Positions 1,813-49,555 of a stretch of 64,000 nt of DNA are shown here, in pieces (position 1 is the stretch's first letter; each line of letters starts with the position of its first letter). The stretch covers positions 556,522 through 620,521 of the forward strand of contig AP024680.1 in the NCBI GenBank assembly GCA_025999275.1, read 5' to 3'. The position numbers were made by a program, and so were the translations under genes. The notes below the pieces were generated by a model. That model did not search any database. It saw nothing but the letters and a program-made list of their open reading frames with translations, and was not told the DNA's origin. The DNA is from Patescibacteria group bacterium. Its GTDB lineage: Bacteria; Patescibacteriota; Microgenomatia; UBA8517.

Positions 1813-3149
1813 ACAAAAAAGTTGTTCTTAAAATTTCCAAGAAATTAAAAGAAAGTAATTTATCTAAATTACCAAGGAACCCCGGTGTTTATTTCTTTAT
1901 GTCTGATAAAAAAGAGGTTTTATATGTTGGCAAAGCTAAAAACCTCAAGAATAGAATTTCAAGTTATTTTTCAAATCTAATTGTAGGTAAAACAAAAACA
2001 ATGGTTGAAAAATCAAAGTATTTAAGTTTTATCAAAACAGAAAGTGAGATAGAAGCATTAATACTCGAAGCAAATTTAATCAAAAAATATAAACCAAAAT
2101 ACAATATCATTCAGAAAGATGATAAAAGTCCTTTATATATCTTAATAACCAAAGAAAAATACCCTCGTCTAATATTAGGAAGAAAAAAAGATATCCAAAA
2201 AAAAGACTTAATAGGTTTCTACGGTCCTTTTCTTTCAACAAGAACAGCCAAAAGAATTTTAAGAAGCATTAGAAAATTTATTCCCTTTTCTGATCATAAA
2301 ATTGGCAGAAAGCCTTGTATGTATAGCCAAATCAATCTCTGTAATCCTTGCCCAAATTTTATAGAATCAATTGATAATAAACAAGAAAATAGATTACTCT
2401 TTAAAAAATATTTACAAAATATTAAAAGAGTTAGACTCTTTCTGGAAGGAGATATAAAAAGGGTCGAAAGAGAATTAAACAAAGAAATGGAATCTTTTAT
2501 TGATAAAGAAGATTTTGAAAATGCAAAAGAAATAAAAGAAAGGATTGAATCGCTTAGATTATTAACCAAACCCCTTAACAAAACCGATGAGTATTTAGAA
2601 AATCCAAATTTACTTCAAGATAAAATTAAGATTGAACTTAATTCACTTTTAGAATTTCTAAACAACTTCTTTAAGATTAAAAAACTAAAAAGAATAGAGT
2701 GTTATGATGTGTCACATTTGTCTGGAATTTTAGGAACTGCGTCGATGGTGGTTTTCATAGATGGTGAGAAAAGTAGCAGTGATTACCGTCATTTTAGATT
2801 AAAAGAAAGCTCAAACGACGACCAAAAATCGTTGTTAGAAATATTAAATCGTAGAATAAAATATCTTAAAGACTGGGGAAAACCAGATCTTGTTATAGTT
2901 GATGGTGGCCGACCACAATTATCAGCAGTGTGGAAAGTATTTTTCCAAAACAAAATACCTGTTATTGGAATTGCAAAAAAATTTGAAGAATTAGTTATTC
3001 CAATATTTGAAAACAACAGGATAAAATATTTTAAATATAAAATAAAAGATAAACCATTTGGAAATTTAATTATTAGGATTAGAGACGAAACGCACCGATT
3101 TGCTTTAAGATATCATCGCAAACTCATCCTCAATAGACCAAAACTTTGA
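1809..3149 (+). CDS. uvrC: UvrC-like excinuclease with an N-terminal GIY-YIG domain and a C-terminal RNase-H-like endonuclease domain. Short form without the HhH tail.
   Basis: GIY-YIG motif PGVYFFMSDKKEVLYVGKAKNLKNR. C-terminal VDGGRPQLSAVWKVF..IPVIGIAKK resembles the UvrC endonuclease domain. 4-nt overlap with the upstream gene. Confidence 0.6.
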   Translation: MNKKVVLKISKKLKESNLSKLPRNPGVYFFMSDKKEVLYVGKAKNLKNRISSYFSNLIVGKTKTMVEKSKYLSFIKTESEIEALILEANLIKKYKPKYNIIQKDDKSPLYILITKEKYPRLILGRKKDIQKKDLIGFYGPFLSTRTAKRILRSIRKFIPFSDHKIGRKPCMYSQINLCNPCPNFIESIDNKQENRLLFKKYLQNIKRVRLFLEGDIKRVERELNKEMESFIDKEDFENAKEIKERIESLRLLTKPLNKTDEYLENPNLLQDKIKIELNSLLEFLNNFFKIKKLKRIECYDVSHLSGILGTASMVVFIDGEKSSSDYRHFRLKESSNDDQKSLLEILNRRIKYLKDWGKPDLVIVDGGRPQLSAVWKVFFQNKIPVIGIAKKFEELVIPIFENNRIKYFKYKIKDKPFGNLIIRIRDETHRFALRYHRKLILNRPKL

Positions 3150-5746: not shown

Positions 5747-6415
5747 ATGGACGAACCTGCCAAAAATGAAAAGAAGATTAAGGTTGAAGTAGTTAAAGAA
5801 GAGCCTGGTTTTAAAGGAAAAGAAAACAATACTCCCCAAATAGAAAGTCAAAAAGAGAAAGTTCAAGTCAAAGAACAACAAGTTCTAGAAAAGGTTGAAA
5901 TAGAAAAAGTAGATAATCCAACAGAAGAAAAAGCCATCCAGCAAAAAACGCCGTTTTGGATTTTGTTTTTAGTATTCCTGCTTGGATTGACTTTGGGAGC
6001 AGGGTTAATTGGAGGTATATTTTATTATAAATCAAAAGTTGAAAAGAGTCAGATTGCAACCAGTTCACCCACTCCTGAAACATTAATAAACAAAGAAGAT
6101 GTAAAAGAAACTCCAAAACCAGAAGAAACAAAAATTTCTGACCTAAAAGTTTTAATTTTAAATGGTTCAGGAATAAAAGGTGAAGCTGGAAAAGTAGAAG
6201 CACTACTTAAGGAAGCTGGTTTCGAGAAGACCGAGACTGGAAACGCAGACTCCTATGACTATAAAGATACTAATATTTTTATTAAACCAAACATAAATGA
6301 TTCTGTTTACGAAAAGATAATTGACATCCTGGAGGGATATAGTTTAAAGAAAGCTGACTTAGAAACGAGCTCAGGATACGATATTAAAATTATTGTGGGG
6401 AAGACTAAAAATTAG
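5747..6415 (+). CDS. membrane-anchored protein with a C-terminal LytR_C-like domain. The ORF-track TTG start at 5708 is probably upstream extension; ATG 5747 (MDEPAKNEKK) is more likely.
   Basis: Single TM segment (FWILFLVFLLGLTLGAGLIGGIFYY). C-terminal LKVLILNGSGIKGEAGKVEALLKEAGF resembles the LytR cell-envelope attenuator C-terminal domain. Confidence 0.4.
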   Translation: MDEPAKNEKKIKVEVVKEEPGFKGKENNTPQIESQKEKVQVKEQQVLEKVEIEKVDNPTEEKAIQQKTPFWILFLVFLLGLTLGAGLIGGIFYYKSKVEKSQIATSSPTPETLINKEDVKETPKPEETKISDLKVLILNGSGIKGEAGKVEALLKEAGFEKTETGNADSYDYKDTNIFIKPNINDSVYEKIIDILEGYSLKKADLETSSGYDIKIIVGKTKN

Positions 6416-6503
6416 ATCGACTCCTTCTTGTTTGATGCTTCCATAATCTGGTAAAATACAAATACTGTTCTTTGAGATGGACCATTATTATTTGGAACTT
6501 CTA

Positions 6504-6587
6504 GCCGAGATGGTGGAATGGTATACACGCAGGACTTAAAATCCTGTGGTCCAATGGACCGTGAGGGTTCGAGTCCCTCTCTCGGCA
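6504..6587 (+). tRNA. tRNA-Leu (anticodon TAA), class II with long variable arm
   Basis: Acceptor GCCGAGA/TCTCGGC, anticodon loop CTTAAAA, variable arm TGGTCCAATGGACCGT, T-loop TTCGAGT. Confidence 0.8.
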
Positions 6588-6597
6588 CAACTTTCAA

Positions 6598-6674
6598 CGG
6601 GGTGTAGCTCAGTTGGCTAGAGTGCGCGCTTTGGGAGCGTGAGGTCGACGGTTCGAGTCCGTCCACCCCGACCA
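6598..6674 (+). tRNA. tRNA-Pro (anticodon TGG), CCA encoded
   Basis: Acceptor CGGGGTG/CACCCCG, anticodon stem-loop CGCGC-TTTGGGA-GCGTG, T-arm GACGG-TTCGAGT-CCGTC, 3' ACCA. Confidence 0.8.
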
Positions 6675-6738
6675 ATACTACCAACCAGCACACAAAAAAC
6701 AAATTAACTAGATACAAAACCAAACGAATAAAAATCCT

Positions 6739-7563: not shown

Positions 7564-7737
7564 ATTTATTTTCCAAGCCCGAACCTTTTTAAATTTTAAT
7601 ATTATAGGTTAATATTTTAACTGTAAAGAAAGAATAATTCAATAGTTATTGATTAAATAATTCAAAAACCATCGCTCTATAAAATTCATTAGAAATAGCA
7701 AGAATTTTATATACAAGGAAATTTGGGAGTTTAAATT

Positions 7738-7811
7738 TGGAGCGGGCACGGAGAATCGAACTCCGATCTACTCCTTGGAAGGGAGTTGTTGAGCCTTTCA
7801 ACTATGCCCGC
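7738..7811 (-). tRNA. tRNA-Gly (anticodon TCC), CCA encoded
   Basis: Reverse complement: acceptor GCGGGCA/TGCCCGC, anticodon stem-loop ACTCC-CTTCCAA-GGAGT, T-arm CGGAG-TTCGATT-CTCCG. Confidence 0.75.
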
Positions 7812-7866: not shown

Positions 7867-8471
7867 CTAATCAAGGCTATCTAAAAACTCAATTACATTA
7901 TCTTCATAAATAGGTTTTTTCATCTCCAGGTCTCTGTAACTGTGGTCAGCGTTTGATACTTCGTGGTAAATTATATTTTTTGATACAGCATCACTCGTAT
8001 CCCTTTTTACAACCTCGATATTTCCAAACTTATCCTTCTCTCCCTGGATAATGGTAATTTTTCCGGTAAAGTTATTTAGCTTAACTTCCCCAGTTACATA
8101 GCCAAGAATGATTACTTCATATAGCTTTTTCTCTTTATCAGTCAAGCTGTTTAGATAATAGCTAGCTATAATTCCACCAAGAGACTTACCAATAAACCTG
8201 ACGCGGGCAAATTTATCAAAATAAGCAATAGACAACATTTCCCTTAGTACTTCTAATTCTTCTTTTAACTCAGGTCCAGAAGAGTGATCATCTCCTCTTT
8301 CTAAGAAAGGAAAATTAAACATAATTACACTGTTGCCTTTACTTTTAGAGTGTTCAAACAATTTTTGCATAAAAGGAGAATCTATACCCCCCCCGATCCG
8401 CCATGCAAAATCACATCTAAATTAGTAGCTCTACTATTGTGGTAATGTATAAAACTAGTCAACTTACTCAT
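7867..8471 (-). pseudogene. alpha/beta hydrolase gene interrupted by a frameshift at a C8 (G8 on the coding strand) homopolymer at 8387..8394. Either a pseudogene or a homopolymer-length assembly error.
   Basis: The downstream ORF (7867..8370) carries the nucleophile elbow GKSLGG. The upstream short frame MSKLTSFIHYHNSRATNLDVILHGGSGG ends in the G-run. Adding one G fuses both into a single hydrolase with HGG oxyanion motif plus GxSxG. Confidence 0.55.
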
Positions 8472-18570: not shown

Positions 18571-19572
18571 ATGAGGAGAAAACTAATAATCGCATTTTTG
18601 ATAAGCACAATAATATTTTTGATAGCATATCAGACAAATTATAAAAATAAAAATAAACCTAGTTTAATCAATCAAACTCCAAAAACAGAAAAAATTCTTG
18701 AAAAATATTCAGTAGAGAATTTGGCTAAATCAGATATAAAAGATGGAGATATTTTGATAAAGGAAAAAATTGAAGAAAAAGAAAAATTTAATTCTTACAT
18801 TTTTGAATTCAGATACAACCCCAACTTAGATGGAAAAACTATTAAGAAAACAACGGGAATGATAAACATTCCAAAAGAGGGAAATAAATTCCCATTGGTA
18901 ATAATGATAAGAGGATATGTTAATCCAAAAATATACAAAACAGGAATCGGCTCAAAAAATTTAAGTTATTTTCTTGCTAATAACGGTTTTTTAACTATTG
19001 CACCCGATTTTTTGGGCTATGCTGATTCTGACAAAGAAGCTGAAAATATTTTTGAATCTAGATTCCAAACTTACACAACAATACTTTCTTTGATTAAATC
19101 AACAAAGAAGATAGAAAAATGGGACGGAAAAAACATTTTCATTTGGGGGCATTCCAATGGAGGCCAAATATCAATTTATACAATCGAGGTAATAAATAAC
19201 AATATACCAACAGTCCTGTGGGCTCCTGTATCAAAGCCTTTTCCTTACTCAATTCTTTACTATACTGACGAAGCTGAAGATAAAGGAAAATTTATAAGAA
19301 AAGAGTTGGCTAAGTTTGAAGAAGTTTACAGTGTTGAAGATTTCTCAATTACCAATCACTTTGACAAAATAAACTCAAAAATATTAATAATTCAAGGGGC
19401 ATTAGATGATGCTGTTCCAGAAAAATGGTCAAGGCAACTTTATCAAACCCTAAAAGAAATGGGTAAAGATGTAAGTTACAAAGTATATCCAGCAGATCAT
19501 AATCTAAGACAATCTTGGCAACAAGCAGCAGAGGAAACACTGTCTTTTTATAAGCAAAATTTGACAGAATGA
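18571..19572 (+). CDS. alpha/beta hydrolase (S9 peptidase / dienelactone hydrolase-like) with N-terminal TM anchor
   Basis: Nucleophile elbow GHSNGG and C-terminal catalytic Asp/His region (LIIQGALDDAVP, ADHN). Confidence 0.5.
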   Translation: MRRKLIIAFLISTIIFLIAYQTNYKNKNKPSLINQTPKTEKILEKYSVENLAKSDIKDGDILIKEKIEEKEKFNSYIFEFRYNPNLDGKTIKKTTGMINIPKEGNKFPLVIMIRGYVNPKIYKTGIGSKNLSYFLANNGFLTIAPDFLGYADSDKEAENIFESRFQTYTTILSLIKSTKKIEKWDGKNIFIWGHSNGGQISIYTIEVINNNIPTVLWAPVSKPFPYSILYYTDEAEDKGKFIRKELAKFEEVYSVEDFSITNHFDKINSKILIIQGALDDAVPEKWSRQLYQTLKEMGKDVSYKVYPADHNLRQSWQQAAEETLSFYKQNLTE

Positions 19573-21225: not shown

Positions 21226-21825
21226 ATGGCAAAATCTGATCTTCATAATAGAAAAGGAAAGAGAAATTATGTTGAAAACCTCAGGGAAAATGATGATTTT
21301 CTTACTTCTTTGGCCTCAAATATCAACCCCCTTGATCTGATTCAAGAGATCGTTGGAATCCAAAAAACAAATGAGGAATATGCAAAAAAAGATTTTAGGC
21401 CCGGCGAATCAATAGAAATATCATCAATCAAGCCATCCGAAAGAAGTTTTTTTAACTTGCCAACCGAGTTTAGTATCTTTAGCCAAGAAAGAAGAGAAAC
21501 TGAAAGAAAAATCGCCGAACTTAAAGCTGAGCTTAAAGCAATTATCAATGAGATAAAGTTGTTGGCAAAATCAACAGAAAATGTAAAAGAAGAAATTAAA
21601 GCAATACCTGAACAGGCACCTGAGGACGCTGGTACTTATCATCTTTTCTTCTTCGAGCAGATATTAAAAATTGTAAGAAACGCTCGTCTTCAAATAGAAA
21701 AAGCCTCTGTTTGGCTCGAGGCCTCAAGCAAAAGATCTCGTATGAAATATTGGACAAGGTATAAAAAGCATGGCTCAAGTTTTCTTCTTTCTGCTGATCA
21801 CTATCTCACCAGATCCGCGGGTTAG
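21226..21825 (+). CDS. hypothetical coiled-coil protein
   Basis: Clean ORF with host-like composition, predicted coiled coil (ELKAELKAIINEIKLL), no recognisable domain. Confidence 0.35.
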   Translation: MAKSDLHNRKGKRNYVENLRENDDFLTSLASNINPLDLIQEIVGIQKTNEEYAKKDFRPGESIEISSIKPSERSFFNLPTEFSIFSQERRETERKIAELKAELKAIINEIKLLAKSTENVKEEIKAIPEQAPEDAGTYHLFFFEQILKIVRNARLQIEKASVWLEASSKRSRMKYWTRYKKHGSSFLLSADHYLTRSAG

Positions 21826-21896
21826 TCAAATGACAAGGACGGACCTTGTCAATAAAGCTTGCAGATTCTCTACTGTTAACATAAAATATGTAACAA

Positions 21897-21970
21897 GGAC
21901 GGTTAGCTCAGTTGGTTAGAGCGTTCGCTTGACGTGCGAAAGGTCAGGGGTTCGAGTCCCTTACCGTCCA
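21897..21970 (+). tRNA. tRNA-Val (anticodon GAC)
   Basis: Acceptor GGACGGT/ACCGTCC, anticodon stem-loop TTCGC-TTGACGT-GCGAA, T-loop TTCGAGT. Confidence 0.8.
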
Positions 21971-22269
21971 CAGTTTTGGAAAATTTAGATTGTCGGGTAA
22001 TGGCACCCGCCGCGCCCACCCCGCGGCGAGTGTTGCAAAGCCCTGTTTATACACCCAAAAAAGACACCGCAATTAAAGAAAAAAAGAAAAACGCAAAAAA
22101 TTTTAACGTCCTAAAACTCAAATGGCGCAATCTGTTGGACACAGAATTGTGCCATCAAAAAAGCAATCCCTTTTTGCTGTGTCCAATAAACCAATAAAAA
22201 TATATCAATTTTCTGGAGGCAAAAGCTACATTTTTTGCTTTTCTGTAAAAAAATTGATATACTACGATT

Positions 22270-23349
22270 ATGCCCGAAGATATAACCAGTGTTAAACAAG
22301 GTATACAAGAAGTAAATCCAGTAGTGGATAAGTTGCGCGAACTCAACCCAATAGAAAAGTTAAGGTCAACTCTAATGGAAGAACATCACCCATACGGGTT
22401 ACTTTTGATGTCAGCGCCTTTTATTTCTGCTGCAGGACCAACGGCATATCACATTGATGATTTAGGATTATCTTCATCTTCACTTTTAGTTTACAGTTCA
22501 TCTGATACAAACCACGGTCAACCAGGAAAATTATTGAAAGACTTTAGTAGTGCGGGTGCACTTGGTTTATTCTCTTCTGGTCATAGCCCTGAAGCCTCAT
22601 TAACTTCTGCAGGTTTTGCTTTATCATCTATGGGTAACGAAGAAGATCAGTTACATATGCCAATTGCAGCGTTGCTCTCCGTTTTAGGTGCTTCGGCTGG
22701 GTCTGATCCAAATTTGGCAAATGCTTTTCGTAATTCGTTTGAATTTACAGCCCCTCAAGCAGAGGCTATGGTTGTTCCTCTTTCGGCTTCCGCCAAACAA
22801 AAAGAAGTCAAATCTTTTTCTCTTAACAGAATGGAAATACGAGATAACAAATTAAGAGTTGGGAGCGTGGTTGCAAATGTATGCGTTTATATTGGGCGAA
22901 AGGAATTTACAATTACTGGTGGAGGGTTAGATAAGCCTTATGTGATTAAACCTGGCGATATTTTTTTAACACTCCATGTTAATCAGAGTGGAGAACAATA
23001 TGCTCAAATGGAACCTATTGCCCGTGTTCGAGCAATTAAGCGCGACTTTCAGAAATTATGTAGATTATTGGAAAAACCTGATCAATTTGAATTATCCGAT
23101 GAACAAAGACAGCAAATAGAGAGATTAAGGGAAGCACCTATGATAGGCGTTAGTCATCTTGTCAAACTGATTGCCGCACGAGGTTTGCCAACCTGGGGTA
23201 TTGAGTCTCTACCAAAACTTGTTCAACAATTTCACACTTTTGATTCCCAAGTTGTTTCTAAATTATTTGGTGGTCAACGGAAGGTGAATTCAATGGACAT
23301 TAGAGTGATGTTTCTCCCCGCATCTATGCGAAGCCAGATAATGGCTTAG
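22270..23349 (+). CDS. hypothetical protein, compositionally atypical (Ser/Ala/Gly/Leu-rich, Lys-poor), in a tRNA-bracketed segment
   Basis: 359-aa clean ORF. Local GC and codon usage differ from the flanks. No recognisable catalytic motif. Confidence 0.4.
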   Translation: MPEDITSVKQGIQEVNPVVDKLRELNPIEKLRSTLMEEHHPYGLLLMSAPFISAAGPTAYHIDDLGLSSSSLLVYSSSDTNHGQPGKLLKDFSSAGALGLFSSGHSPEASLTSAGFALSSMGNEEDQLHMPIAALLSVLGASAGSDPNLANAFRNSFEFTAPQAEAMVVPLSASAKQKEVKSFSLNRMEIRDNKLRVGSVVANVCVYIGRKEFTITGGGLDKPYVIKPGDIFLTLHVNQSGEQYAQMEPIARVRAIKRDFQKLCRLLEKPDQFELSDEQRQQIERLREAPMIGVSHLVKLIAARGLPTWGIESLPKLVQQFHTFDSQVVSKLFGGQRKVNSMDIRVMFLPASMRSQIMA

Positions 23350-23515
23350 CATAATTGCTCGGCGGAGCCGAGCAAAAATCGCGCGCGTGAAACATAAGCG
23401 AGGTCGAAAGCTGGGTGTGAAGATGACACTCTAAGTTGATAGAGGCACTCGCAGTGCTACCTTTGAAATTCAGTCCGAATTTTTTCGTAAAGAGTCCACT
23501 CAATTTGTATATAGA

Positions 23516-23589
23516 GGGCCCGTAGCTCAGCTGGCTAGAGCGCCTGGCTGGCAGTCAGGAGGTCAGGGGTTCGATCCCCCTCGGGTCCA
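23516..23589 (+). tRNA. tRNA-Ala (anticodon GGC) with G3:U70 identity pair
   Basis: Acceptor GGGCCCG/CGGGTCC (G3-T70), anticodon stem-loop CCTGG-CTGGCAG-TCAGG, T-arm AGGGG-TTCGATC-CCCCT. Confidence 0.8.
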
Positions 23590-23730
23590 CTACAAAATTT
23601 AGTCATCTATCTACAAAACACTAAATAAAACTAGTAAATTTAAATTATTTTTTTTAAAATTACATTTTTAAAAGTATCGCATTGTATAATTGTCTAGATT
23701 TTTACCCACAAAAGTTTTAATATATCAACA

Positions 23731-25473
23731 ATGGATCAAAACGAAAAATTAAGAGCACTGAGACACACTACCGAACACGTTTTAACTCAGGCTGTTTTGA
23801 GGCTTTTCCCCAAAGTAAAAATGGCTATGGGGCCAGCAACCGATGAGGGTTTCTATTTTGACTTTGACCCCAATGGAGAACAAATTAGCGAAAAAGATTT
23901 TCCCAAAATAGAAGCAGAAATGGAAAAAATTATCAAAGCAGATTTACCACTAAAAAGGGAGGAAATTACTCTTGACGAGGCAAGAAAAGTTTTTGCAGAT
24001 AATCCCTACAAACTTGAATGGTTAGATGAAATTGAAAAAAGAAAAGAAAAACCCACAATCTATAGAACCGGAAATGAATTTGTAGATCTTTGTGCAGGAC
24101 CCCATGTTAGCTCAACTGGCAAAATAAAAGCCTTCAAACTTATCTCTATCGCCGGTGCCTACTGGCATGGAGACGAAAGAAATAAAATGTTAACCCGAAT
24201 TTATGGAACTGCTTTTGAAACAAAAGAAGAGCTTGAAAAATACCTAAAAAATTTAGAGGAAGCAAAAAAAAGAGACCATAGAAAAATCGGCAAAGACTTA
24301 GATCTATTCCTGCTAACAGACGAAGTTGGACCAGGGCTTCTAATACTTAAGCCAAAAGGGGCTATTATAAGGCGAGAAATAGAAAACTTCATAATTGAAG
24401 AACAAACTAAAAGAGGGTATCAGCATGTCTACACCCCTCATATCGGCCGAAAACAACTTTGGAAAACCTCCGGCCATTGGGATTTATACCGGGACAAGAT
24501 GTATTCGCCAATGAAAATAGACCAAGATGAATATTTAGTCAAACCAATGAATTGTCCATTCCATATGGCAGTTTACAAATCTCAAAAAAGAAGCTATAGG
24601 GAACTCCCATTAAGAATTGCTGAAATTGCAACAGTTTATCGCTATGAAAAACCTGGAGAACTTTCAGGAATGTTAAGAGTAAGACACATCACTCAAGATG
24701 ACGCACATATTTTTTGCCGAGAAAACCAAGTAGTTAATGAATTTATAGGGGTATTTGATTATATGTCCTACTTGCTTGAAACATTTGGCCTTAATAATTA
24801 CTACCTAAGGCTAGGTCTAAGATCTCCAAAAGAAAAATATCTTGGCAATGACGAAATATGGGAAAAGGCAGAAAAAGAAATAGTAAAGGCAATAGAGAAA
24901 AAAGGATTGAAATATGTTAAAAGCTATGGAGATGCGGCTTTTTATGGACCAAAGCTTGATGTAATAATTAAAGATGCCATAGGAAGAGAGTGGCAGTGCG
25001 GAACAATACAAGTTGATTTTATGCTTCCAGAGCGTTTTGGTCTTGAGTATGTAAACGAAAAAGGAGAGATAGAAAGACCGGTTTTAATCCACAGAGCTCC
25101 ACTAGGTTCAATCGAGAGGTTTCTTGCCATAATAATTGAAAATTACGCAGGCAACTTTCCAGCTTGGTTATCACCCATACAAGTAAGAGTTTTGCCTATT
25201 ACCGAAAGGAATGTCAAATATGCCCAAGATATTACAGAAAAACTTGAGACAAATGGTATAAGAGCCGAAATCGATTTAAGGAATGAAACCTTGGGAGCAA
25301 AAATACGCGACGCACAACTTGAAAAAGTATATCTAATGGTTATAGTAGGTGACAAAGAAGAAAAAGAAAATAAAGTAGCTGTAAGAAACAGACACGGAAA
25401 AGATAACGGTTTGCAAACAATTGAGTCTCTAATCGAAGACCTTAACAATAAAATAAAACAAAAGCTTCCGTAA
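23731..25473 (+). CDS. thrS: threonine--tRNA ligase (class II), short N-terminus
   Basis: Editing/second-additional domain (HTTEHVL, CAGPH) and catalytic core HIGRKQLWKTSGHWDLYRDKMY, motif 2/3 region, C-terminal anticodon-binding domain. Confidence 0.9.
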   Translation: MDQNEKLRALRHTTEHVLTQAVLRLFPKVKMAMGPATDEGFYFDFDPNGEQISEKDFPKIEAEMEKIIKADLPLKREEITLDEARKVFADNPYKLEWLDEIEKRKEKPTIYRTGNEFVDLCAGPHVSSTGKIKAFKLISIAGAYWHGDERNKMLTRIYGTAFETKEELEKYLKNLEEAKKRDHRKIGKDLDLFLLTDEVGPGLLILKPKGAIIRREIENFIIEEQTKRGYQHVYTPHIGRKQLWKTSGHWDLYRDKMYSPMKIDQDEYLVKPMNCPFHMAVYKSQKRSYRELPLRIAEIATVYRYEKPGELSGMLRVRHITQDDAHIFCRENQVVNEFIGVFDYMSYLLETFGLNNYYLRLGLRSPKEKYLGNDEIWEKAEKEIVKAIEKKGLKYVKSYGDAAFYGPKLDVIIKDAIGREWQCGTIQVDFMLPERFGLEYVNEKGEIERPVLIHRAPLGSIERFLAIIIENYAGNFPAWLSPIQVRVLPITERNVKYAQDITEKLETNGIRAEIDLRNETLGAKIRDAQLEKVYLMVIVGDKEEKENKVAVRNRHGKDNGLQTIESLIEDLNNKIKQKLP

Positions 25474-40954: not shown

Positions 40955-41818
40955 TTACTGTTTTGAAAGATCCCCAGAACTAACTAAACCAGCTTCAAAT
41001 ACACTCAAGGGAGTACGATAATAATCAGCTACTTCAACTTGTCTTACTGTACCACCAGAATAACCACGAGAAACCAAAAGCTTTCCCTGAGAAGGAAGAA
41101 CACCTCCTTGAACATTCACTCCAAGTCCAGAAGAATAACCGTATAAAACCCTAATAACAGCAAAAAGAGGTCTGGTAAGATCAGAAATGTTAATGCTCCC
41201 AGAAGAAAAAGAATAGCCATTTTGACCCCCAGAGGCAGCTGTAAAACCGTTAACAGCACGCCTCGAAGAAATGGGGTCGAAAGCAAATCGCTTAACCCTT
41301 ATGCCACTAAAATTTGGAGTAGAAGCAATGGCTCCACTCAAACCCAAAGTATCATAATAAACAACAACTTCAACAGCGGTATTATTACCATTCCAAAACA
41401 CAGTAAAACTACTTCCATTAAAACAAATTTTGTTTGTACAAGTAAGTCTCAAGCCATCATCGGTGTGGGAAACAAACCAAACAGTTGCCGTATCCCCATT
41501 GTTATAATTGTCACTAAAACTAAAAAAATTTCCTCCCTCATCCAAAGTATAAGACTGGGCAGATTCTATAAATGCATCATTTCCTAATTGTTCACCTGAT
41601 ATATTAGTCTCTCCAATTAATAACCTTTCTATACCAGCTTCTGCTGCAGAAAAAGCTTTAGAAGAGTTTTCCTCAACCTCACTAATTGAAACGTCTGTTA
41701 CAGATCTAGACACAACCGAAAGAACAATTGTCAAAACAACAGCCATTCCCAAAATTACAAGAAGTACAGCTTGACCTGAAGACTTTTTCAAGAACTTATA
41801 ACTGGCAGTATGTTTCAT
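40955..41818 (-). CDS. PilX-N domain pilus-associated protein
   Basis: SGQAVLLVILGMAVVLTIVLSVVSRS...AFSAAEAGIERLL matches the PilX N-terminal pattern (hydrophobic helix then AAEAG). Confidence 0.5.
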   Translation of the reverse strand: MKHTASYKFLKKSSGQAVLLVILGMAVVLTIVLSVVSRSVTDVSISEVEENSSKAFSAAEAGIERLLIGETNISGEQLGNDAFIESAQSYTLDEGGNFFSFSDNYNNGDTATVWFVSHTDDGLRLTCTNKICFNGSSFTVFWNGNNTAVEVVVYYDTLGLSGAIASTPNFSGIRVKRFAFDPISSRRAVNGFTAASGGQNGYSFSSGSINISDLTRPLFAVIRVLYGYSSGLGVNVQGGVLPSQGKLLVSRGYSGGTVRQVEVADYYRTPLSVFEAGLVSSGDLSKQ

Positions 41819-41865
41819 AAATCTAAACCAGTTTATGACTAAAAAATAAACAAGTCAAGTACTTC

Positions 41866-42360
41866 TCACTTCAAGTAATTCCTCAAAAAAATTCTGGATG
41901 AGACGGTAGCAACATCCGACTCAACCCCACTAGTACCTAAACTACTAGCAGTCAGATTGATAACAACAACTCCGTTAGAAACCAAAGAACTACAATCAAA
42001 ACCACAGTTACTAAGATTAATATTCGCTCCAGTTAGATCAGAGCCATTCATAACAAGATTATTTGAATTACAACTCAAATTCACAGAAATACCATTTTGA
42101 TCAGTAAAAGATAATCTAGGAGATTGATTTTGAGGATCCAAACAAGATACGGAATTGTTTTTTGCCTCTCTTAAAGACCTTTCAACAATAGAAACAGCAT
42201 TCTCAAGTTCAGACCTTACCTTCATAGAAGATTCACTTTTTCTTACTCCTTTCATAGAGGTGCCAACCAGATTCCCAACCAAAACTGCTATTCCAGCAAA
42301 AAGGCCTGTTACTACCAGCATCTCAATTAAAGTAAATCCCCATATTTTAACTGTTTTCAT
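41866..42360 (-). CDS. minor pilin with prepilin-type N-terminal cleavage/methylation domain
   Basis: GFTLIEMLVVTGLFAGIAVL class III signal with E+5. Confidence 0.6.
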   Translation of the reverse strand: MKTVKIWGFTLIEMLVVTGLFAGIAVLVGNLVGTSMKGVRKSESSMKVRSELENAVSIVERSLREAKNNSVSCLDPQNQSPRLSFTDQNGISVNLSCNSNNLVMNGSDLTGANINLSNCGFDCSSLVSNGVVVINLTASSLGTSGVESDVATVSSRIFLRNYLK

Positions 42361-42361
42361 A

Positions 42362-42832
42362 TTATTCGGTCAATGAAAAAATAGACTCAACTTTTGTTAT
42401 ATGATTCCCAGCACTATCACTCCATGTAACCACAACTGTTGCCTTAATCTTAGGTTTCTGACCCACTCCTAGATCATATTTATAAAGCATCAATTCTCGT
42501 TTAAAAACACCACCTAAAGAATAGCTCGAGCAACTACCAGGGCTATCAAAGTTTAAGCTGTTTAAACAAAAGTCTATATTATTAAGATTGGTGTCAGCTC
42601 TATAATTTAGAATATTATACCAATTATCCCTTTTATATGCCCTTAACCACTCCATTGCCTCTTCAACGTACCTTTTTGCCATTGTTTGCCTTTTGGCAAA
42701 ATAGGCTGCCTTAATTGAAAGTGCCGAAAGGCCAACAACAGCAACTATTATTATCACTATTAAAGCTAAAGCTACAAGAAGCTCTACTAAAGATTGGCCT
42801 TTATCACCCTTAGATTTTTTAAATCTTTTCAT
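42362..42832 (-). CDS. minor pilin/pseudopilin-like
   Basis: KGQSLVELLVALALIVIIIVAVVGL prepilin-like N-terminus with Gly-1 and Glu+5. Confidence 0.5.
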   Translation of the reverse strand: MKRFKKSKGDKGQSLVELLVALALIVIIIVAVVGLSALSIKAAYFAKRQTMAKRYVEEAMEWLRAYKRDNWYNILNYRADTNLNNIDFCLNSLNFDSPGSCSSYSLGGVFKRELMLYKYDLGVGQKPKIKATVVVTWSDSAGNHITKVESIFSLTE

Positions 42833-42835
42833 TAT

Positions 42836-43339
42836 CTAATTAGTATATGTCATACTTATCTTACCAGAAGTTGAAACCGTAATATTAATATAAGGATTTA
42901 ATGTTCCAGACCTTAAAATTCTAAAAGAGACACCACCATCAGCACCTCCTGTCACAGCCCTGAAAACAATGCTCACAGAAGAATCAGCAATCTCAAAACC
43001 ATTTGGCATACTCCTATTAATAACACTTGTATAATAATTAACACCAGACAAGCGGCAAACACGCCTTATGCTGTAAGAAGTTGCACTATTAAGATAAAAA
43101 TTATAACCGTAAAAATAACCTTGGCTACCACAATACGCATCCTTTCCAGACATAGCATAACTTTGAGCAAGTCTTAGATCTCCTTCAACTTGCCTGGCAG
43201 CAGCCCATAAAGCTTGTTTTTGTGAATAAGCGCGGAAATTAGCATAACCAAGGCCAACCAAAATAGAAATAACCAAAATTGAAACAAGAAGCTCAATTAA
43301 TGTAAAACCTGAATTTTTAAAGGCAGATTTTGACTCCAT
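42836..43339 (-). CDS. minor pilin (GspH/FimT-like)
   Basis: SGFTLIELLVSILVISILVGL prepilin signal. Confidence 0.6.
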   Translation of the reverse strand: MESKSAFKNSGFTLIELLVSILVISILVGLGYANFRAYSQKQALWAAARQVEGDLRLAQSYAMSGKDAYCGSQGYFYGYNFYLNSATSYSIRRVCRLSGVNYYTSVINRSMPNGFEIADSSVSIVFRAVTGGADGGVSFRILRSGTLNPYINITVSTSGKISMTYTN

Positions 43340-43354
43340 ATAAACATAATAATT

Positions 43355-43804
43355 TCAAGGATTCGTAACTTTGTAATTACAACCTATACCACAGTTGCCT
43401 CCGCAACCACTTACAGCTGCTCCACCACCTTCCAGAGAGGCGCAAAGAGCATAAGTATTACAATTTCCAGAAGGAGAACAAGTGTAAGTATAAAATCTAG
43501 AAGGGGAAAGTGGGTCGGAAGGATTCGAAGCTATATAACTCGAAAGTGGTAGGGAAGAAGCATTAAAATCAGAAATACTGGGATATCTGCCATTATCAGC
43601 CTTATACATCTCAAGGGCAGAGCGAATAGATTCTAAATCTGACTTTCTTTTTGCGTCTCTTGAACTCTTACGCGCATTTTGGATACCAAAAAGGGAGAGG
43701 GAGATTAAAATTCCAATTATAGAAATAACCACAAGAAGTTCAATTAAAGTGAAACCTAATTTTTTTGTAAAAAACATTCTTTGATAAAAAAATCTCCTTG
43801 CCAT
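43355..43804 (-). CDS. type IV pilin paralogue, Cys-rich C-terminus. The internal Met at MFFTKKLG gives a typical short leader.
   Basis: LGFTLIELLVVISIIGIL plus conserved core SRDAKRKSDLESIRSALEMY..GRYP. Eight Cys in the last 45 aa. Confidence 0.7.
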   Translation of the reverse strand: MARRFFYQRMFFTKKLGFTLIELLVVISIIGILISLSLFGIQNARKSSRDAKRKSDLESIRSALEMYKADNGRYPSISDFNASSLPLSSYIASNPSDPLSPSRFYTYTCSPSGNCNTYALCASLEGGGAAVSGCGGNCGIGCNYKVTNP

Positions 43805-43810
43805 AAGCTA

Positions 43811-44251
43811 TCACAAAGGACATGTTCCACTCGTTGGAGCAGAACTTGTTTCCCCAGACTTGCCAGTTGAACAAACCACCCAATACGGCCCAGTACTATA
43901 AGCTTCTATCTGCGCCCAAAGAACATACTCAGAACCATTCGTGGATCTTCTATAACCATAGGGGTATGTTGAATCATCAGGACAATTTGTTATGCTCAAA
44001 GCACTACAAAGATTAGACATGCCTGTACCTGAGATAGAAGGGTAAACTCCAGCGGTAATATTAGCATAATTCTCAAGAGCAGCTTGATATTGCCTTAAAT
44101 CAGACTTTCTTCTCGTATCCCGCGCTTGTTTTTGCGAACGAGAATAAGAAACCAAAGCCAAAGAAGCAAGAATACCAATAATAGAGATAACCACCAAAAG
44201 TTCAATCAAGGTAAAACCTATCTTGTCATAATTGATATATCTTATCCTCAT
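43811..44251 (-). CDS. type IV pilin paralogue
   Basis: IGFTLIELLVVISIIGILASL plus core ARDTRRKSDLRQYQAALENY..GVYP. Confidence 0.7.
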   Translation of the reverse strand: MRIRYINYDKIGFTLIELLVVISIIGILASLALVSYSRSQKQARDTRRKSDLRQYQAALENYANITAGVYPSISGTGMSNLCSALSITNCPDDSTYPYGYRRSTNGSEYVLWAQIEAYSTGPYWVVCSTGKSGETSSAPTSGTCPL

Positions 44252-44262
44252 ATTAAACTAAA

Positions 44263-44772
44263 TCAAGGCTTAACCTCGTAAACACAACCGTCAACACCCG
44301 ATAACCAAGAGCAAGTTGCACCAGTCTTACACTTATCATCTGCTTTGTTTTCAAGGCAAGCCGAGAGAGTATAGTCTTCATTTGAAATCCGGACATAATT
44401 ATAACTTCTTGCTGAGCCCTGTGGGTCTTTAGGAAGAACATTCATATAAACAACATTGCTACTACCGGCAGAAAAAGTTCCCCCCCAAGTGCAGACACTG
44501 TTTCCACTTGTACCACAACCCATAATGCTCCCACCACTAGAATTAGGATATCTGCCATAATCATTATAATAAGTCCTTAAAGCAGTCTGAATATTCCTTA
44601 AATCAGATTTCCTTTGAGCATCGCGAGCTCTTTGGCGAGTTGCATTGTAATTGGCAACAAGAAGTGTAGCTAGAATCCCAATAATAGAAATTACTACAAG
44701 AAGTTCAATTAAAGTAAAACCAAATACTTGGAAGTTTATTCTTTTATCTGATTGAGCAGGAAAATTAAGCAT
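44263..44772 (-). CDS. type IV pilin paralogue
   Basis: FGFTLIELLVVISIIGILATL plus core ARDAQRKSDLRNIQTALRTYYNDYGRYP. Confidence 0.7.
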   Translation of the reverse strand: MLNFPAQSDKRINFQVFGFTLIELLVVISIIGILATLLVANYNATRQRARDAQRKSDLRNIQTALRTYYNDYGRYPNSSGGSIMGCGTSGNSVCTWGGTFSAGSSNVVYMNVLPKDPQGSARSYNYVRISNEDYTLSACLENKADDKCKTGATCSWLSGVDGCVYEVKP

Positions 44773-44797
44773 AATTTAATTATACAACAATTTATTT

Positions 44798-45355
44798 TTA
44801 CAAAGCATCCTTAGGTGTAACATTAGCACTTGTAATTGCAAAATTACAAGAACCATTACAATTATTACCCACAGGTACGCCAGTAGCAGAACAATCAGAG
44901 TTTATGCAATTCTGATCCTTATCGTTTTCAAGGTGGGCAAAAAGCCTAAACGACTGGCCATTGGAAACATAATAGTAAGAAAAACCTCCTGGATCTTTAG
45001 GCAAAGACTTAAAATAAAGAACATCCCTATCAGCATCCCTAAATTCACTGTTGTAATCTGGAGCCCCCCATTGACAAATACTTGGAGTTGTACTGCTATA
45101 GTATGGACAACCCAAGATCTTACCATTATAAGAAGATGGATAAAATCCTTTATCAGAATAAAACATCTCCAAAGCATTTGCAATTTGCTTTAAATCAGAT
45201 TTCCGTTTTGCATCACGAGACCTCATTTGAGAAGACCTAAAACTACTCAAGGCAATGGTTGAAAGGATTCCCAAAATAGTTATAGCTACCAGAAGCTCTA
45301 TAAGAGTAAATCCTAAACCATTCTTCCTTAAAAAATTAAAAATGGGCATAATCAA
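44798..45355 (-). CDS. type IV pilin paralogue
   Basis: LGFTLIELLVAITILGILS plus core SRDAKRKSDLKQIANALEMFYSDKGFYP. Confidence 0.7.
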   Translation of the reverse strand: MIMPIFNFLRKNGLGFTLIELLVAITILGILSTIALSSFRSSQMRSRDAKRKSDLKQIANALEMFYSDKGFYPSSYNGKILGCPYYSSTTPSICQWGAPDYNSEFRDADRDVLYFKSLPKDPGGFSYYYVSNGQSFRLFAHLENDKDQNCINSDCSATGVPVGNNCNGSCNFAITSANVTPKDAL

Positions 45356-45374
45356 TTAATTTATATTAGCGAGA

Positions 45375-45932
45375 TCATCTTACTATTTCAACCCCATTAC
45401 TTCTTGCTGCGTTACAAAATACTATTCCACACTTAATTTTTTGCAAAAGAATATTCTTATTGTAATCCGGCATTCTTCTAGTTTCATAACTCACATAAAC
45501 ATAATACTTGCCATCCTTAAATTCATACCTATAACTATAACCCTTATCAGATAGGGGATCTTGGGGGATTATTTCAAGAAAAGCTGGATAATTACCGTCT
45601 AAAGCATCACGCAAAGCATCCTTTCCCCAATCGCAAGGCACCAAATTCACCAACTTATCCCTCACTGCACCAGGTTCCCTTACTCCCAATCCATTTTGAT
45701 CTTTCAAAACCTTAGTATCTTCACCAGCACAAGCAATTATTCGACCGTCATCAGATACTTCAGGATAATAACCAAAAGCTTGCCGGTAGGCTTCTAAAGC
45801 CTGCGCCACTAGGCTAATATCAGCATTCCTTTTTACATCCCTTTCTCTTTTTTTCGCCTCAGAAAAGCCATAAAAAGAAACAACTAATACCAACAGGAAA
45901 ACCAAAAAAACTCTTAATGATTCTTTAATCAT
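45375..45932 (-). CDS. pilin-like paralogue lacking a canonical prepilin cleavage motif. Start placed at an internal Met; the ORF track runs to 45986.
   Basis: Retains the family core KRERDVKRNADISLVAQALEAYRQAFGYYP and a hydrophobic helix (LRVFLVFLLVLVV), but has no G-F-T-L-I-E. Confidence 0.4.
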   Translation of the reverse strand: MIKESLRVFLVFLLVLVVSFYGFSEAKKRERDVKRNADISLVAQALEAYRQAFGYYPEVSDDGRIIACAGEDTKVLKDQNGLGVREPGAVRDKLVNLVPCDWGKDALRDALDGNYPAFLEIIPQDPLSDKGYSYRYEFKDGKYYVYVSYETRRMPDYNKNILLQKIKCGIVFCNAARSNGVEIVR

Positions 45933-46585
45933 CACTGGCATTGATTTATAGAATTTCCGTTCCCGTCTATACACAAACCACGACAATCGCTTTGGGAAAA
46001 GTTTGGCTGACAGACCGGTATCTTAGTATAAGGATCAATAGAGATAGGTTGGCACACGCCAGAGAAACAGCCATAATAAGTACCAGTAGCATCAGGTGGA
46101 ACATTTGGATTACCCGACTTAAAAGGATCTGGAGCAGAAGGGGTAGTCACATAGTAATTAAAACCATAGCTTTGACTAGGACCGCAACCGTTCTCACAAC
46201 CTAATTCTTTTATCTTTGGATCACCTATGTATTCTAAATTGGTAAATATCCATGCCCACTTTGCGCAAACAGAACTAGGATCAGCATAATAAACATAATC
46301 AGTTTTTGTATGAGGATCACATGGAATCGCTGATATATAAGATTTTAAAATCCCAGCATCAGCACCCCTGCAAGATGGTAAGTAAGGGGGATAACAATTA
46401 TTGTCCTTCTCATATTCCTCAAGCGCTATCTTAATCCTATCAAGATCTGACTTTCTTCTTGCGTCATAGCCTTTACTAATCTGACTTTTAAATACAAAGA
46501 TAGAAATTACTACCATTAAAGACAAAAATGCTATAACTATCAAAACTTCAATCATCGTAAATGCTAAAAAAATATTTTTCCTCAT
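45932..46585 (-). CDS. Cys-rich pilin paralogue with variant leader (AFTMIEVLIV). ATG overlaps the pilD stop (ATGA).
   Basis: Core GYDARRKSDLDRIKIALEEYEKDNNCYP. 14 Cys in the C-terminal 150 aa. Confidence 0.55.
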   Translation of the reverse strand: MRKNIFLAFTMIEVLIVIAFLSLMVVISIFVFKSQISKGYDARRKSDLDRIKIALEEYEKDNNCYPPYLPSCRGADAGILKSYISAIPCDPHTKTDYVYYADPSSVCAKWAWIFTNLEYIGDPKIKELGCENGCGPSQSYGFNYYVTTPSAPDPFKSGNPNVPPDATGTYYGCFSGVCQPISIDPYTKIPVCQPNFSQSDCRGLCIDGNGNSINQCQ

Positions 46586-47319
46586 CTTAAAAATAAAATT
46601 AGCTTTTCTCCAAATAAAAATACTAGCCAAAAGGAAAAGACCAAAAACGGACCAAAGGGAATTTGCTTCCCAAATTTCGCTTTACCTATTAAAATAAGAA
46701 TAACCCCTAGAATAGCACCCGTCAAGAAAGAAATAAAAATCCACAAGACCCCAAGAGGAAATCCCATAAAAAATCCAAGGGGTAGGGCAAGTTTAACATC
46801 TCCCAATCCCATTCCATGACCTTTTGTCACAAGATGCAAAAATAAAAGAAACAAAGATAAAGAAAAAGCAATTAATAAATTTAGATAAAAATTTTGATCT
46901 TTTATAAATAGGGAAGTGGTAAGAAAAAAAATAAAAAGTAAATAGGTTAAGCCATCAAAAATAACCTTATGTTCAAGGTCAATAATAAAAATTACTTCAA
47001 GAACAATAAAAACAAAAAGCAGTAAGGGTATGGACAAGGTCCGACCCTGTCCAAAGCTGTAGATCAAAATAAAGCCTAAAGCAGTGGATAGCTCAATTAT
47101 GGGATAACGATAGGAAATTTTTTTGCCGCAATTACGACATTTTCCGCCAAGAATAATAAAAGAGAGGAGGGGAATGTTATCATACCAAGAAATTTTACGA
47201 TTGCATTTAGGACAAAAAGATCTGCCTGAAACAAATGAAATTCCTAGTGGTAAGCGGTATGATAGAGCAGAAACAAAAGATCCAAAAACAAGACCCAAGA
47301 TAAATACTAGAAAGGACAT
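46582..47319 (-). CDS. pilD: prepilin peptidase (A24 family)
   Basis: N-terminal Zn-finger-like CPKCNRKISWYDNIPLLSFIILGGKCRNCGKKI, polytopic with catalytic Asp region. Confidence 0.9.
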   Translation of the reverse strand: MSFLVFILGLVFGSFVSALSYRLPLGISFVSGRSFCPKCNRKISWYDNIPLLSFIILGGKCRNCGKKISYRYPIIELSTALGFILIYSFGQGRTLSIPLLLFVFIVLEVIFIIDLEHKVIFDGLTYLLFIFFLTTSLFIKDQNFYLNLLIAFSLSLFLLFLHLVTKGHGMGLGDVKLALPLGFFMGFPLGVLWIFISFLTGAILGVILILIGKAKFGKQIPFGPFLVFSFWLVFLFGEKLILFLR

Positions 47320-47321
47320 AA

Positions 47322-48983: not shown

Positions 48984-48994
48984 AACTAATTTCG

Positions 48995-49555
48995 TCAAGG
49001 CAGACAAGAGTACGGGGAAACAGTGTTGCCACAAACAGTGGCTGCAACTGGCTGTAAATCTGCAGGTAATCCGCTTCCACTAGTACTCCCACACCTATTA
49101 TTAGCTTCTGTCCTAAAAGAACCTGATTGAGGAGCAAAACAAACATAATAACTATCACCTGCTTGACCTCGATTAAATATAAAGAGAGGGTTGTAACCCG
49201 AAGTAGTAATTCTATTAACAAAAGATTGCTTTATCTCTTCTGTACCTGCAGCTGACAACTGAGCAAGAACCGAAGTCGTTCCAGAACCAGACCAAGTAGT
49301 AGTAATTCGCGTCCAAGGTACAGCAGCACCAGCTGTCCCAGCTCCTGTCTGCCAAGGATAATAACCCCTTGATGCATAATACCTATCAATAGCCCCTATC
49401 AACTGCTCGGCATCAGATCGGGAACCGGTATCTCGAGAACGATTAATCTGCTCAATCGGATTAATTGCTGCTAAAACTGCAACAGCTAGAATTCCCAACA
49501 CCGCAATGACTATAAGAAGCTCAATTAAAGTAAAACCTTTAATAGAAGATTTCAT
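48995..49555 (-). CDS. type IV pilin, candidate major pilin (Gly/Thr/Ser/Ala-rich globular domain)
   Basis: KGFTLIELLIVIAVLGILAVAVLAA prepilin signal. Core SRDTGSRSDAEQLIGAIDRYY..GYYP. Higher GC and low Lys, typical of surface-exposed pilin. Confidence 0.65.
   Translation of the reverse strand: MKSSIKGFTLIELLIVIAVLGILAVAVLAAINPIEQINRSRDTGSRSDAEQLIGAIDRYYASRGYYPWQTGAGTAGAAVPWTRITTTWSGSGTTSVLAQLSAAGTEEIKQSFVNRITTSGYNPLFIFNRGQAGDSYYVCFAPQSGSFRTEANNRCGSTSGSGLPADLQPVAATVCGNTVSPYSCLP

Follow-up and report, generated by a model that had tools for sequence, protein, structure and literature searches.

The locus examined here lies in a stretch of 64 kilobases (kb) of Patescibacteria DNA, hereafter the window. 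Within it, the segment 21972-23515, bounded by the genes for tRNA-Val(GAC) and tRNA-Ala(GGC), carries an open reading frame (ORF) for a protein of 359 amino acids (aa) and stands out by its content of guanine and cytosine (GC). The locus raises the question whether this segment is an islet recently acquired at a tRNA gene, as the original prediction had it, or a settled part of the genome. Our analysis points to the latter: the segment is probably a self-contained, long-resident and natively expressed accessory gene cassette, which occupies a replacement slot between the two tRNA genes and is not freshly imported DNA.

Both tRNA genes and, as the ORF listing bears out, the 359-aa ORF itself are located where the original prediction had placed them. 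The ORF is separated from tRNA-Val by 298 nucleotides (nt) and from tRNA-Ala by 166 nt, and is the sole ORF of more than 90 aa in the segment. In three related contigs (L012, L013 and L015; 78% aa identity), the order tRNA-Val(GAC)–leader–ORF–3' spacer–tRNA-Ala(GGC) is retained, and L005 (89% aa identity) retains the part from the ORF to tRNA-Ala. L012, L013 and L015 stem from independent JGI and ENA assemblies, which excludes a chimeric assembly. Identity to L012 amounts to 85.8/88.3/63.5% at the three codon positions; because of this pattern, the ORF is judged to be a real gene under purifying selection on its protein. At four-fold-type third positions, the identity between the window and L012 is 58%, and by this comparison the residence of the ORF in the inter-tRNA slot is older than the divergence to that level. 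The presence of the same ORF at the same position across related genomes is the outcome that the original prediction had itself named as refuting a recent islet. Among more distant members, L003 (44% identity) shows the order tig–DUF5660–…–tRNA-Val(GAC)–two ORFs–homologue, while L025 is embedded in a run of housekeeping genes.

The composition of the segment was judged against the 58 window ORFs of at least 100 aa and, for GC and tetranucleotides, against windows of equal size. The genome is AT-rich, with a mean GC of 0.35, a mean GC at third codon positions (GC3) of 0.27 and numerous tRNA genes in the window. The higher local GC that had been reported is real (0.401 compared to 0.351±0.028, within the top 2.4% of windows), and it speaks for a recent foreign islet, brought in by site-specific integration at a tRNA gene with an effector, toxin or surface protein as its cargo. 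Against such an origin stands the native composition of the silent sites. The GC3 of the ORF is 0.275, compared to 0.272±0.041 among the window ORFs, and its GC excess is located in codon position 1 (0.522 versus 0.438) and position 2 (0.400 versus 0.347). The remaining excess comes from the tRNA-proximal spacers (GC 0.45), which hold G-C-rich stems. The ORF ranks 7 of 58 by synonymous-codon likelihood, with one spurious ORF overlying tRNA genes among the six that are more atypical, and the tetranucleotide distance of the segment is equalled or exceeded by 21.6% of windows. Lysine makes up 5.3% of the protein (median 8.5%); 13 of the 58 ORFs are equally or more Lys-poor, notable among them a pilin-like cluster at 40955-49555. 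The sum of Ser, Ala, Gly and Leu, 36.8%, falls within the window range of 22-40%. The descriptions of the ORF as 'compositionally foreign' and of its product as 'unlike essentially every other protein' are thus not upheld by the windowed GC, codon, tetranucleotide and amino-acid comparisons. Of the 58 ORFs, 3 have a Shine-Dalgarno-like motif no more than 20 nt from the start, and the 359-aa ORF is among the 55 without one. Because its GC3, codon use and tetranucleotides are ordinary and its start without a Shine-Dalgarno motif is shared with the genome, the synonymous composition and expression signals of the ORF match the host genome. The high local GC would have two causes, namely an acidic helical module rich in Ala, Gly, Ser and Pro, whose codons are richer in GC at positions 1 and 2, and, in the spacers, G-C-rich RNA stems set within an AT-rich genome. 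The label of the metagenome-assembled genome hints at a hot spring as its source.

Two further observations concern the reference ORFs. The most codon-atypical 'ORF' of the window is the spurious one, at 6412-6723 (-), which overlies tRNA-Leu and tRNA-Pro. The cluster at 40955-49555 (-) is a run of small Ser/Ala/Gly/Leu-rich proteins, more Lys-poor than the 359-aa ORF, and adjoins a T2SSE-type ATPase (51923-53680); the run is pilin-like by composition, and the Pfam check covered its TPR protein at 47322-49034.

The slot itself varies between genomes. Three long Woesebacteria-like contigs (L022-L024), fetched with the neighbouring DUF5660 gene as probe, encode DUF5660 proteins 56-64% identical to that of the window. 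They are collinear with the window over approximately 7 kb upstream (methyltransferase, tRNA-Leu, DUF192, LigT, S9 peptidase, holin_4_2, tig, DUF5660, tRNA-Val; flanks confirmed by Pfam), and L023 is also collinear downstream (tRNA-Ala, thrS, infC). In the window, the housekeeping neighbours comprise an S9-type hydrolase (18571-19572), a holin_4_2-family protein, trigger factor (tig) and DUF5660 upstream, and thrS, infC, rpmI, rplT and pheST downstream. In place of the ORF, all three contigs carry a copper-resistance cluster of about 4.4 kb between tRNA-Val(GAC) and tRNA-Ala(GGC) (e.g., L023 8120-12086), which is composed of an HMA protein, a DsbD_2/cupredoxin protein, a CsoR-type repressor and a P-type ATPase. 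Nucleotide homology to relatives without the ORF ends at the 3' end of tRNA-Val (21971/21972), and in L023 and L024 it sets in again at 23512-23515, 1-4 nt before tRNA-Ala. Since collinear relatives hold the copper cluster at this site and the ORF occurs in other contexts, the slot is variable and the gene accessory. The cargo of the slot would thus differ between related, Woesebacteria-like Patescibacteria, and its turnover may proceed via homologous recombination through the conserved tRNA genes and housekeeping flanks instead of through a tRNA-targeting integrase.

Exact bracketing by two tRNA genes, alternative cargo in collinear relatives and a tRNA neighbourhood that acts as a hot spot in relatives (GIY-YIG in L022/L023; restriction-modification or HTH genes in L024/L005) are also in keeping with a foreign islet. 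The marks of site-specific integration, however, are missing. There is no integrase in 21972-23515, where the single ORF above 90 aa has no Pfam match, as is the case for all 51 aligned family members. A direct repeat of the tRNA 3' end at the far border (attL/attR) was not found either, as the repeat search shows only that the T-arms of the two tRNAs are generally similar. The 10-nt repeat ACAAGGACGG, which had been described at the 5' junction of tRNA-Val, does exist with its second copy at that junction, although the coordinates were off by one (21833-21842 and 21893-21902). Both copies lie upstream of tRNA-Val and leave the ORF unbracketed. Exact 10-mers repeated within 100 nt number 93 in the window, compared to 23±5 in Markov simulations, and because of this abundance the repeat is not rare. 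It is not an attachment-site duplication. A palindrome similar to that which holds the first copy is found close to tRNA-Val in L024 (7931-7949, inverted, and 8144-8162). Of the proposed islet at a tRNA locus, the variable slot bracketed by tRNA genes stands, whereas the recent foreign origin does not, given the native composition and the conserved synteny. These two lines of sequence evidence have largely refuted it already, and we consider a recent foreign islet very unlikely.

The surroundings of both tRNA genes show insertions of their own. In L023 (7665-8080) and L022 (7664-8078), tRNA-Val(GAC) is split in the D-loop, with its first 23 nt and last 43 nt, identical to the gene of the window, flanking an insert of about 350 nt. 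The insert encodes a GIY-YIG endonuclease (Pfam E 2.8e-16), carries another tRNA-Val(GAC), intact and of 80% identity, and looks like a homing element that supplies its own replacement tRNA. In L024, direct repeats of approximately 80 nt, AT-rich and built from gattt/aagattt-type units (~7715-7790 and 8190-8270), flank a tRNA-Val(GAC) identical to that of the window, and copies of the GACAAGGnnnnnCCTTGTC-type palindrome lie on either side of this gene. The 3' side of tRNA-Ala(GGC) varies as well. It is occupied by thrS in the window (23591-23730 region) and in L023, by HTH_3, DNA methylase and R.HinP1I restriction enzyme genes in L024 (12667-14603), and by HTH_3 and HTH_17 (excisionase-like) genes in L005 (1490-2263).

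The 359-aa protein belongs to a small family, whose members are found only in Patescibacteria-type genomes and metagenome contigs. A word-indexed search yielded 17 homologues at 44-100% identity, and an exhaustive profile search yielded 57 clusters among 1.84 billion representatives, including two low-complexity false positives. Wherever a homologue offers any clue to its taxonomy, that clue is to a Patescibacteria-like source, which again argues against a foreign origin. The only annotation of the window copy is that of the identical 'hypothetical protein KatS3mg088_586' from a Patescibacteria metagenome-assembled genome (785,860-bp contig). The family is marked by the motifs HHPYGLLL, LHVN, APxIGxSHLVRL, LPTW and FHxxDSQxVSxxFGGxRKVxxxDIxV. 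Residues H236, S295, W309 and G334 are invariant across the 51 aligned sequences, and R337-K338 and D343 in the C-terminal domain are also conserved. The absence of a recognisable domain, as initially stated, holds in every collection searched: Pfam gives no match in any of the 51 members, window protein included; NCBIfam, PHROGs and PADLOC give nothing meaningful for the window protein and three or four relatives; and the family profile has no match among PDB sequences. An AlphaFold model built from the 51-sequence alignment has a mean predicted local distance difference test score (pLDDT) of 82 and a predicted template modelling score (pTM) of 0.67, with the C-terminal domain (188-359) above 90, and Foldseek returned no match to it at E<=0.001 in PDB or BFVD. 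A literature search provided nothing specific to the family or the locus.

Structurally, the model consists of three parts. Residues ~1-60 carry the HHPYGLLL motif (isoelectric point (pI) of the segment 5.1), residues ~61-160 form an acidic, Ser/Ala/Gly/Leu-rich helical bundle (pI 4.9), and residues ~186-359 are predicted to form a basic beta-barrel with an alpha/beta core (pI 9.8). Neither a signal peptide nor a transmembrane helix is predicted (best 19-aa Kyte-Doolittle window 1.15), and IMG/VR and the phage and plasmid collections contain no relatives of the family. An 'effector, toxin or surface protein' finds no counterpart in these results, nor in any defence match. We tentatively propose a soluble cytoplasmic protein, whose basic C-terminal domain could be the working core and bind an anionic partner such as nucleic acid. 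Since short homologues lack it, the acidic Ser/Ala/Gly-rich bundle would, in the same tentative proposal, be an accessory module that the protein can do without.

Some members of the family deserve separate mention. The locus L007 (CAZGOA010000003.1) encodes a short, 254-aa member 56 nt after tRNA-Ile(GAT), together with an S9-type hydrolase like that at 18571-19572 of the window. Its GTDB title reads 'uncultured Gammaproteobacteria', yet its gene content looks Patescibacteria-like, and the label may be wrong. When L005 (69-1489), the closest relative, is aligned with the window (22096-23515), the coding sequences share 96% of nucleotides but 89% of residues, with differences distributed evenly among the codon positions (94.4/95.3/96.1% identity); the leader and the 3' spacer are 99% identical. 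The differences fall partly on conserved residues (e.g., RKV->REV and PGD->PSD). This pattern could reflect relaxed or diversifying selection, or a poor contig, as L005 starts with Illumina adapter sequence. Distant members form tandem paralogue pairs in L008 (5428-7633 and 7560-9422) and L019 (315-2714 and 3659-5071). The former pair, in a contig labelled Candidatus Beckwithbacteria, follows dnaA-dnaN beside a VirB4/TraG-P-loop ATPase, and the latter adjoins a 470-aa protein with multiple transmembrane helices and a weak TrbC/VirB2 match. Such VirB4/TrbC-type neighbours are not present at the loci of the window, L001-L003 or L025. A conserved partner gene was ruled out, as the ORFs upstream of the L003 and L008 homologues are unrelated.

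The gene appears to bring its own expression signals. A promoter-like site directly upstream of the ORF is nearly invariant in all lineages, including those with other genomic contexts. A TATAAT-like box a few bases upstream of the start is found at many window ORFs (e.g., tig, gyrB and the ORFs at 10486 and 54005). Together with the scarcity of Shine-Dalgarno motifs, this points to translation with no leader or a short one as a common feature of the genome. The 359-aa gene would have an extended -10 promoter of its own and an mRNA with no leader or almost none, in the usual style of the genome. The GC-rich hairpin and the inverted repeat that had been described in the upstream region are both present and extend further than first stated. 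The hairpin CGCCGCG/CGCGGCG occupies 22008-22014/22022-22028; in L012, its core stem is a perfect 11 base pairs (bp), with an A-U pair replaced by G-C and a C·A mismatch by U-A. The inverted repeat GGACACAG/CTGTGTCC (22137-22144/22177-22184) extends to 10 bp (22135-22144/22177-22186). Folding z-scores of the leader are approximately -3.3 in the window and in L012, and both stems of the leader element persist despite a 21-nt insertion in L012. The element precedes the predicted promoter and may act as RNA, switch-like or pseudoknotted, or as DNA. Spacer identity between the window and L012 is 81-87%. Because the spacers are far more conserved than the silent sites (58%), both the 5' and the 3' spacer are, by this measure, under constraint, and the strength of this constraint on the non-coding leader and 3' element is surprising. 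Nucleotide conservation is all that speaks for a small protein being encoded in the leader (22122-22295) or in the 3' spacer on the minus strand (23324-23503).

Downstream of the ORF, a conserved 3' element always follows the gene, once per locus by nhmmer. The post-stop hairpin, which had been recognised previously, forms part of it and extends to 9 bp; in L012, one of its G-C pairs is swapped for C-G. The element shows 83-87% identity between lineages that share 49-58% of their silent sites (83% versus 49% for the window and L009). The transcript of the gene may end in a structured 3' untranslated region (UTR). A protein-RNA pair would go further: the basic C-terminal domain would bind the element, as a small RNA or as a cis-acting 3' UTR, in autoregulation or as a ribonucleoprotein. 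This idea draws on the pI of that domain, on the conservation of the element, on compensatory changes at three pairs, and on the fact that the element stays with the ORF in L009-L011 and L014, where ARAGORN calls no tRNA-Ala. The element is missing, however, after homologues at 73% identity or less (L006/L016, L003 and L025), so that the protein does not need it. The predicted fold varies from lineage to lineage, neither strand folds clearly better than the other, covariation has no statistical power with three independent lineages, and in Rfam 15 only the two tRNAs pass, other matches in 21700-23800 being far below gathering thresholds. We regard such a pair as unlikely.

Other readings of the non-coding parts were rejected. 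A split structured RNA (group I intron, RNase P RNA, tmRNA, SRP RNA or 6S RNA) is contradicted by Rfam, which finds only the tRNAs at E<=10, and by the L009-type loci, in which the GC-rich 5' and 3' parts do not occur together. For a TnpB/IS110-like guide-RNA element, a retron or a type III toxin-antitoxin system there are no profile matches, and many homologues lack the 3' element. Nor are the 5' hairpin and the long 3' hairpin copies of one repeat: in L012 they have only GATGGCGCT in common, which is not significant. Neither the hairpin after tRNA-Val nor that after the stop codon reads as a terminator; no U-tract follows either of them, and the terminator scan found none.

Signs of movement come from relatives in which the gene lies outside the slot. 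The part common to the tRNA-flanked and the L009-type loci corresponds to 22227-23503 of the window (~1.28 kb), from the promoter-proximal region through the ORF to the 3' element. In L009, L010 and L014, a single-copy unit is located between direct repeats of 41-81 nt; the L009-type unit contains a short remnant with weak similarity to the C-terminal end of an rve_2 transposase (E 0.002, which misses the Pfam threshold), followed by promoter, ORF and 3' element. The flanks of L014 have no counterpart in the window. The MEGAHIT contig L011 measures 1761 nt, and its first and last 141 nt are identical, which gives a unit of 1620 nt; it would represent either a circle or a tandem duplication, in a relative rather than in the window. 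These contigs raise the idea of a self-mobilising or self-amplifying minimal cassette (~22227-23503), in which the 359-aa protein would be a new recombinase or nuclease and the GC-rich hairpins its recognition sites. The occurrence of the unit in at least two unrelated contexts with intact non-coding ends agrees with this, as do the frequent proximity of homologues to tRNA genes (Val in the window, L012 and L003; Ile in L007) and the basic C-terminal domain with its invariant His and Ser. Yet the unit is single-copy in the window, which is the part of the genome covered, and the family, with its 57 clusters, is not proliferating. Distant homologues are packed among housekeeping genes without conserved flanks (L003, L006/L016 and L025), and no transposase, RuvC-type, nuclease or recombinase domain was detected by profile (Pfam, NCBIfam, PHROG, PDB) or fold. 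No dedicated enzyme is required for L011, because recombination between repeats suffices for a circle or tandem copy; ordinary recombination between 60-nt repeats would do so, and the L009-type unit has its rve_2 remnant. We give self-mobilisation only a slim chance. The related, broader proposition that promoter, ORF and 150-nt 3' element form a minimal autonomous genetic element of Patescibacteria, whose protein would act on the GC-rich hairpins as a new recombinase or as one half of an RNA-protein pair, seems to us hardly probable; if it were true, a new recombinase would explain the circle-like contig and the shifting contexts.

Several points weigh against a long-resident cassette in a replacement slot. 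At 73-74% identity, the ORF sits elsewhere (L006/L016, where it directly precedes a 509-aa ORF; L009-L011/L014), and at 50-61% identity (L001 and L002) there is no synteny. The circular or tandem signature of L011 and the direct repeats around the unit would fit active mobility too. Either occupant of the slot, the ORF or the copper cluster, could be ancestral and the other the newcomer. That the slot turns over by homologous recombination is a step that we infer, the promoter and the leaderless start are consensus readings, and the proposed function rests on charge, conservation and loose context. The coordinates of the features discussed are collected in Table 1.

Table 1 Features of the inter-tRNA segment and of related loci (window coordinates unless a contig is named).
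Feature	Position	Strand	Remarks
Hairpin GACAAGG-ACGGA-CCTTGTC	21832-21850	+	7 nt after the DUF5660 stop codon; 5' half holds the first ACAAGGACGG copy
Second ACAAGGACGG copy	21893-21902	+	4 nt of flank and first 6 nt of tRNA-Val
tRNA-Val(GAC)	21897-21971	+	Left border of the variable slot; 100% identical in L012 and L024
Stem-loop after tRNA-Val	21995-22043	+	Core stem 22004-22014/22022-22032 within an outer CGGG/CCCUG stem
Leader element	22122-22186	+	Two mutually exclusive 10-bp stems: 22122-22131/22146-22155 and 22135-22144/22177-22186
Promoter-like site	22235-22263	+	TTGCTT, 17-nt spacer, extended -10 TGaTATACT; ends 6 nt before the ATG
ORF, 359 aa	22270-23349	+	Protein-coding gene of a family found only in Patescibacteria, without described domain
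Conserved 3' element	23350-23503	+	~150 nt; accompanies the ORF; hairpin, CGCG stem, GC-rich core, GAAAUUC/GAAUUUU stem and CGAATTTTTTCGTAAAGAG
Post-stop hairpin GCUCGGC-GGA-GCCGAGC	23357-23373	+	Extends to 9 bp at 23355-23375
GC-rich core of the 3' element	23398-23452	+	
Invariant CGAATTTTTTCGTAAAGAG of the 3' element	23476-23494	+	
tRNA-Ala(GGC)	23516-23590	+	Right border of the variable slot
Direct repeats around the unit	L009 65-127 and 1667-1747; L014 233-295 and ~1840-1915		Contain variable GTAGGGTTG(Y)GTAGGGTG mini-repeats

This is a finding of an ordinary kind, which leaves current understanding in place. It offers a clean example of an inter-tRNA replacement slot in reduced Patescibacteria genomes, which bears on how accessory functions are exchanged in tiny genomes, and two modest leads, an uncharacterised protein family found only in Patescibacteria and constrained spacers. 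As a conserved family, so far Patescibacteria-only and without a PDB or BFVD relative, the former is a reasonable target for structural and functional work. There is also a lesson of method: raised local GC in an AT-rich genome may reflect amino-acid content and RNA stems instead of foreign origin, and it is GC3 together with silent-site conservation that decides the question.

Compared to known systems, the protein resembles other lineage-restricted hypothetical families of Patescibacteria (CPR, candidate phyla radiation) in having no Pfam or NCBIfam model, a patchy distribution and housekeeping surroundings. It differs from them in being unusually well defined, with strong motifs and a confident model unmatched in PDB and BFVD, and in its tandem paralogues beside VirB4-like or TrbC-like genes in two Microgenomates-type loci. 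The G-C-rich stem-loops placed right after the tRNA-Val 3' end and after the stop codon, with stems kept by compensatory changes, recall structured 3' UTRs and terminator-like stem-loops, but the hairpins of the window have no U-tract, and a 3' element of ~150 nt is far longer than a terminator. The multi-copy or widespread occurrence of single-ORF insertion sequences (IS110/IS1111, IS200/IS605-TnpB) is not seen here, with one copy in the window and 57 clusters. Integron cassettes share with the unit a single ORF, a conserved and imperfectly palindromic 3' element, one circle-like relative contig and differing contexts. In contrast to them, the unit of the window has its own promoter-like site and lies next to tRNA genes, tig and thrS with no integron integrase or cassette array, and its 3' element is conserved in sequence, unlike most attC sites, and missing from many homologues. 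With tRNA-linked islets and replacement regions, the locus shares exact tRNA bounds, alternative cargo in collinear relatives and insertions at neighbouring tRNA sides. Here, however, integrase, att duplication and deviant silent-site composition are lacking, the cargo is a lineage-native gene that has been kept over a long divergence, and turnover has the look of replacement through the flanks, not of site-specific integration.

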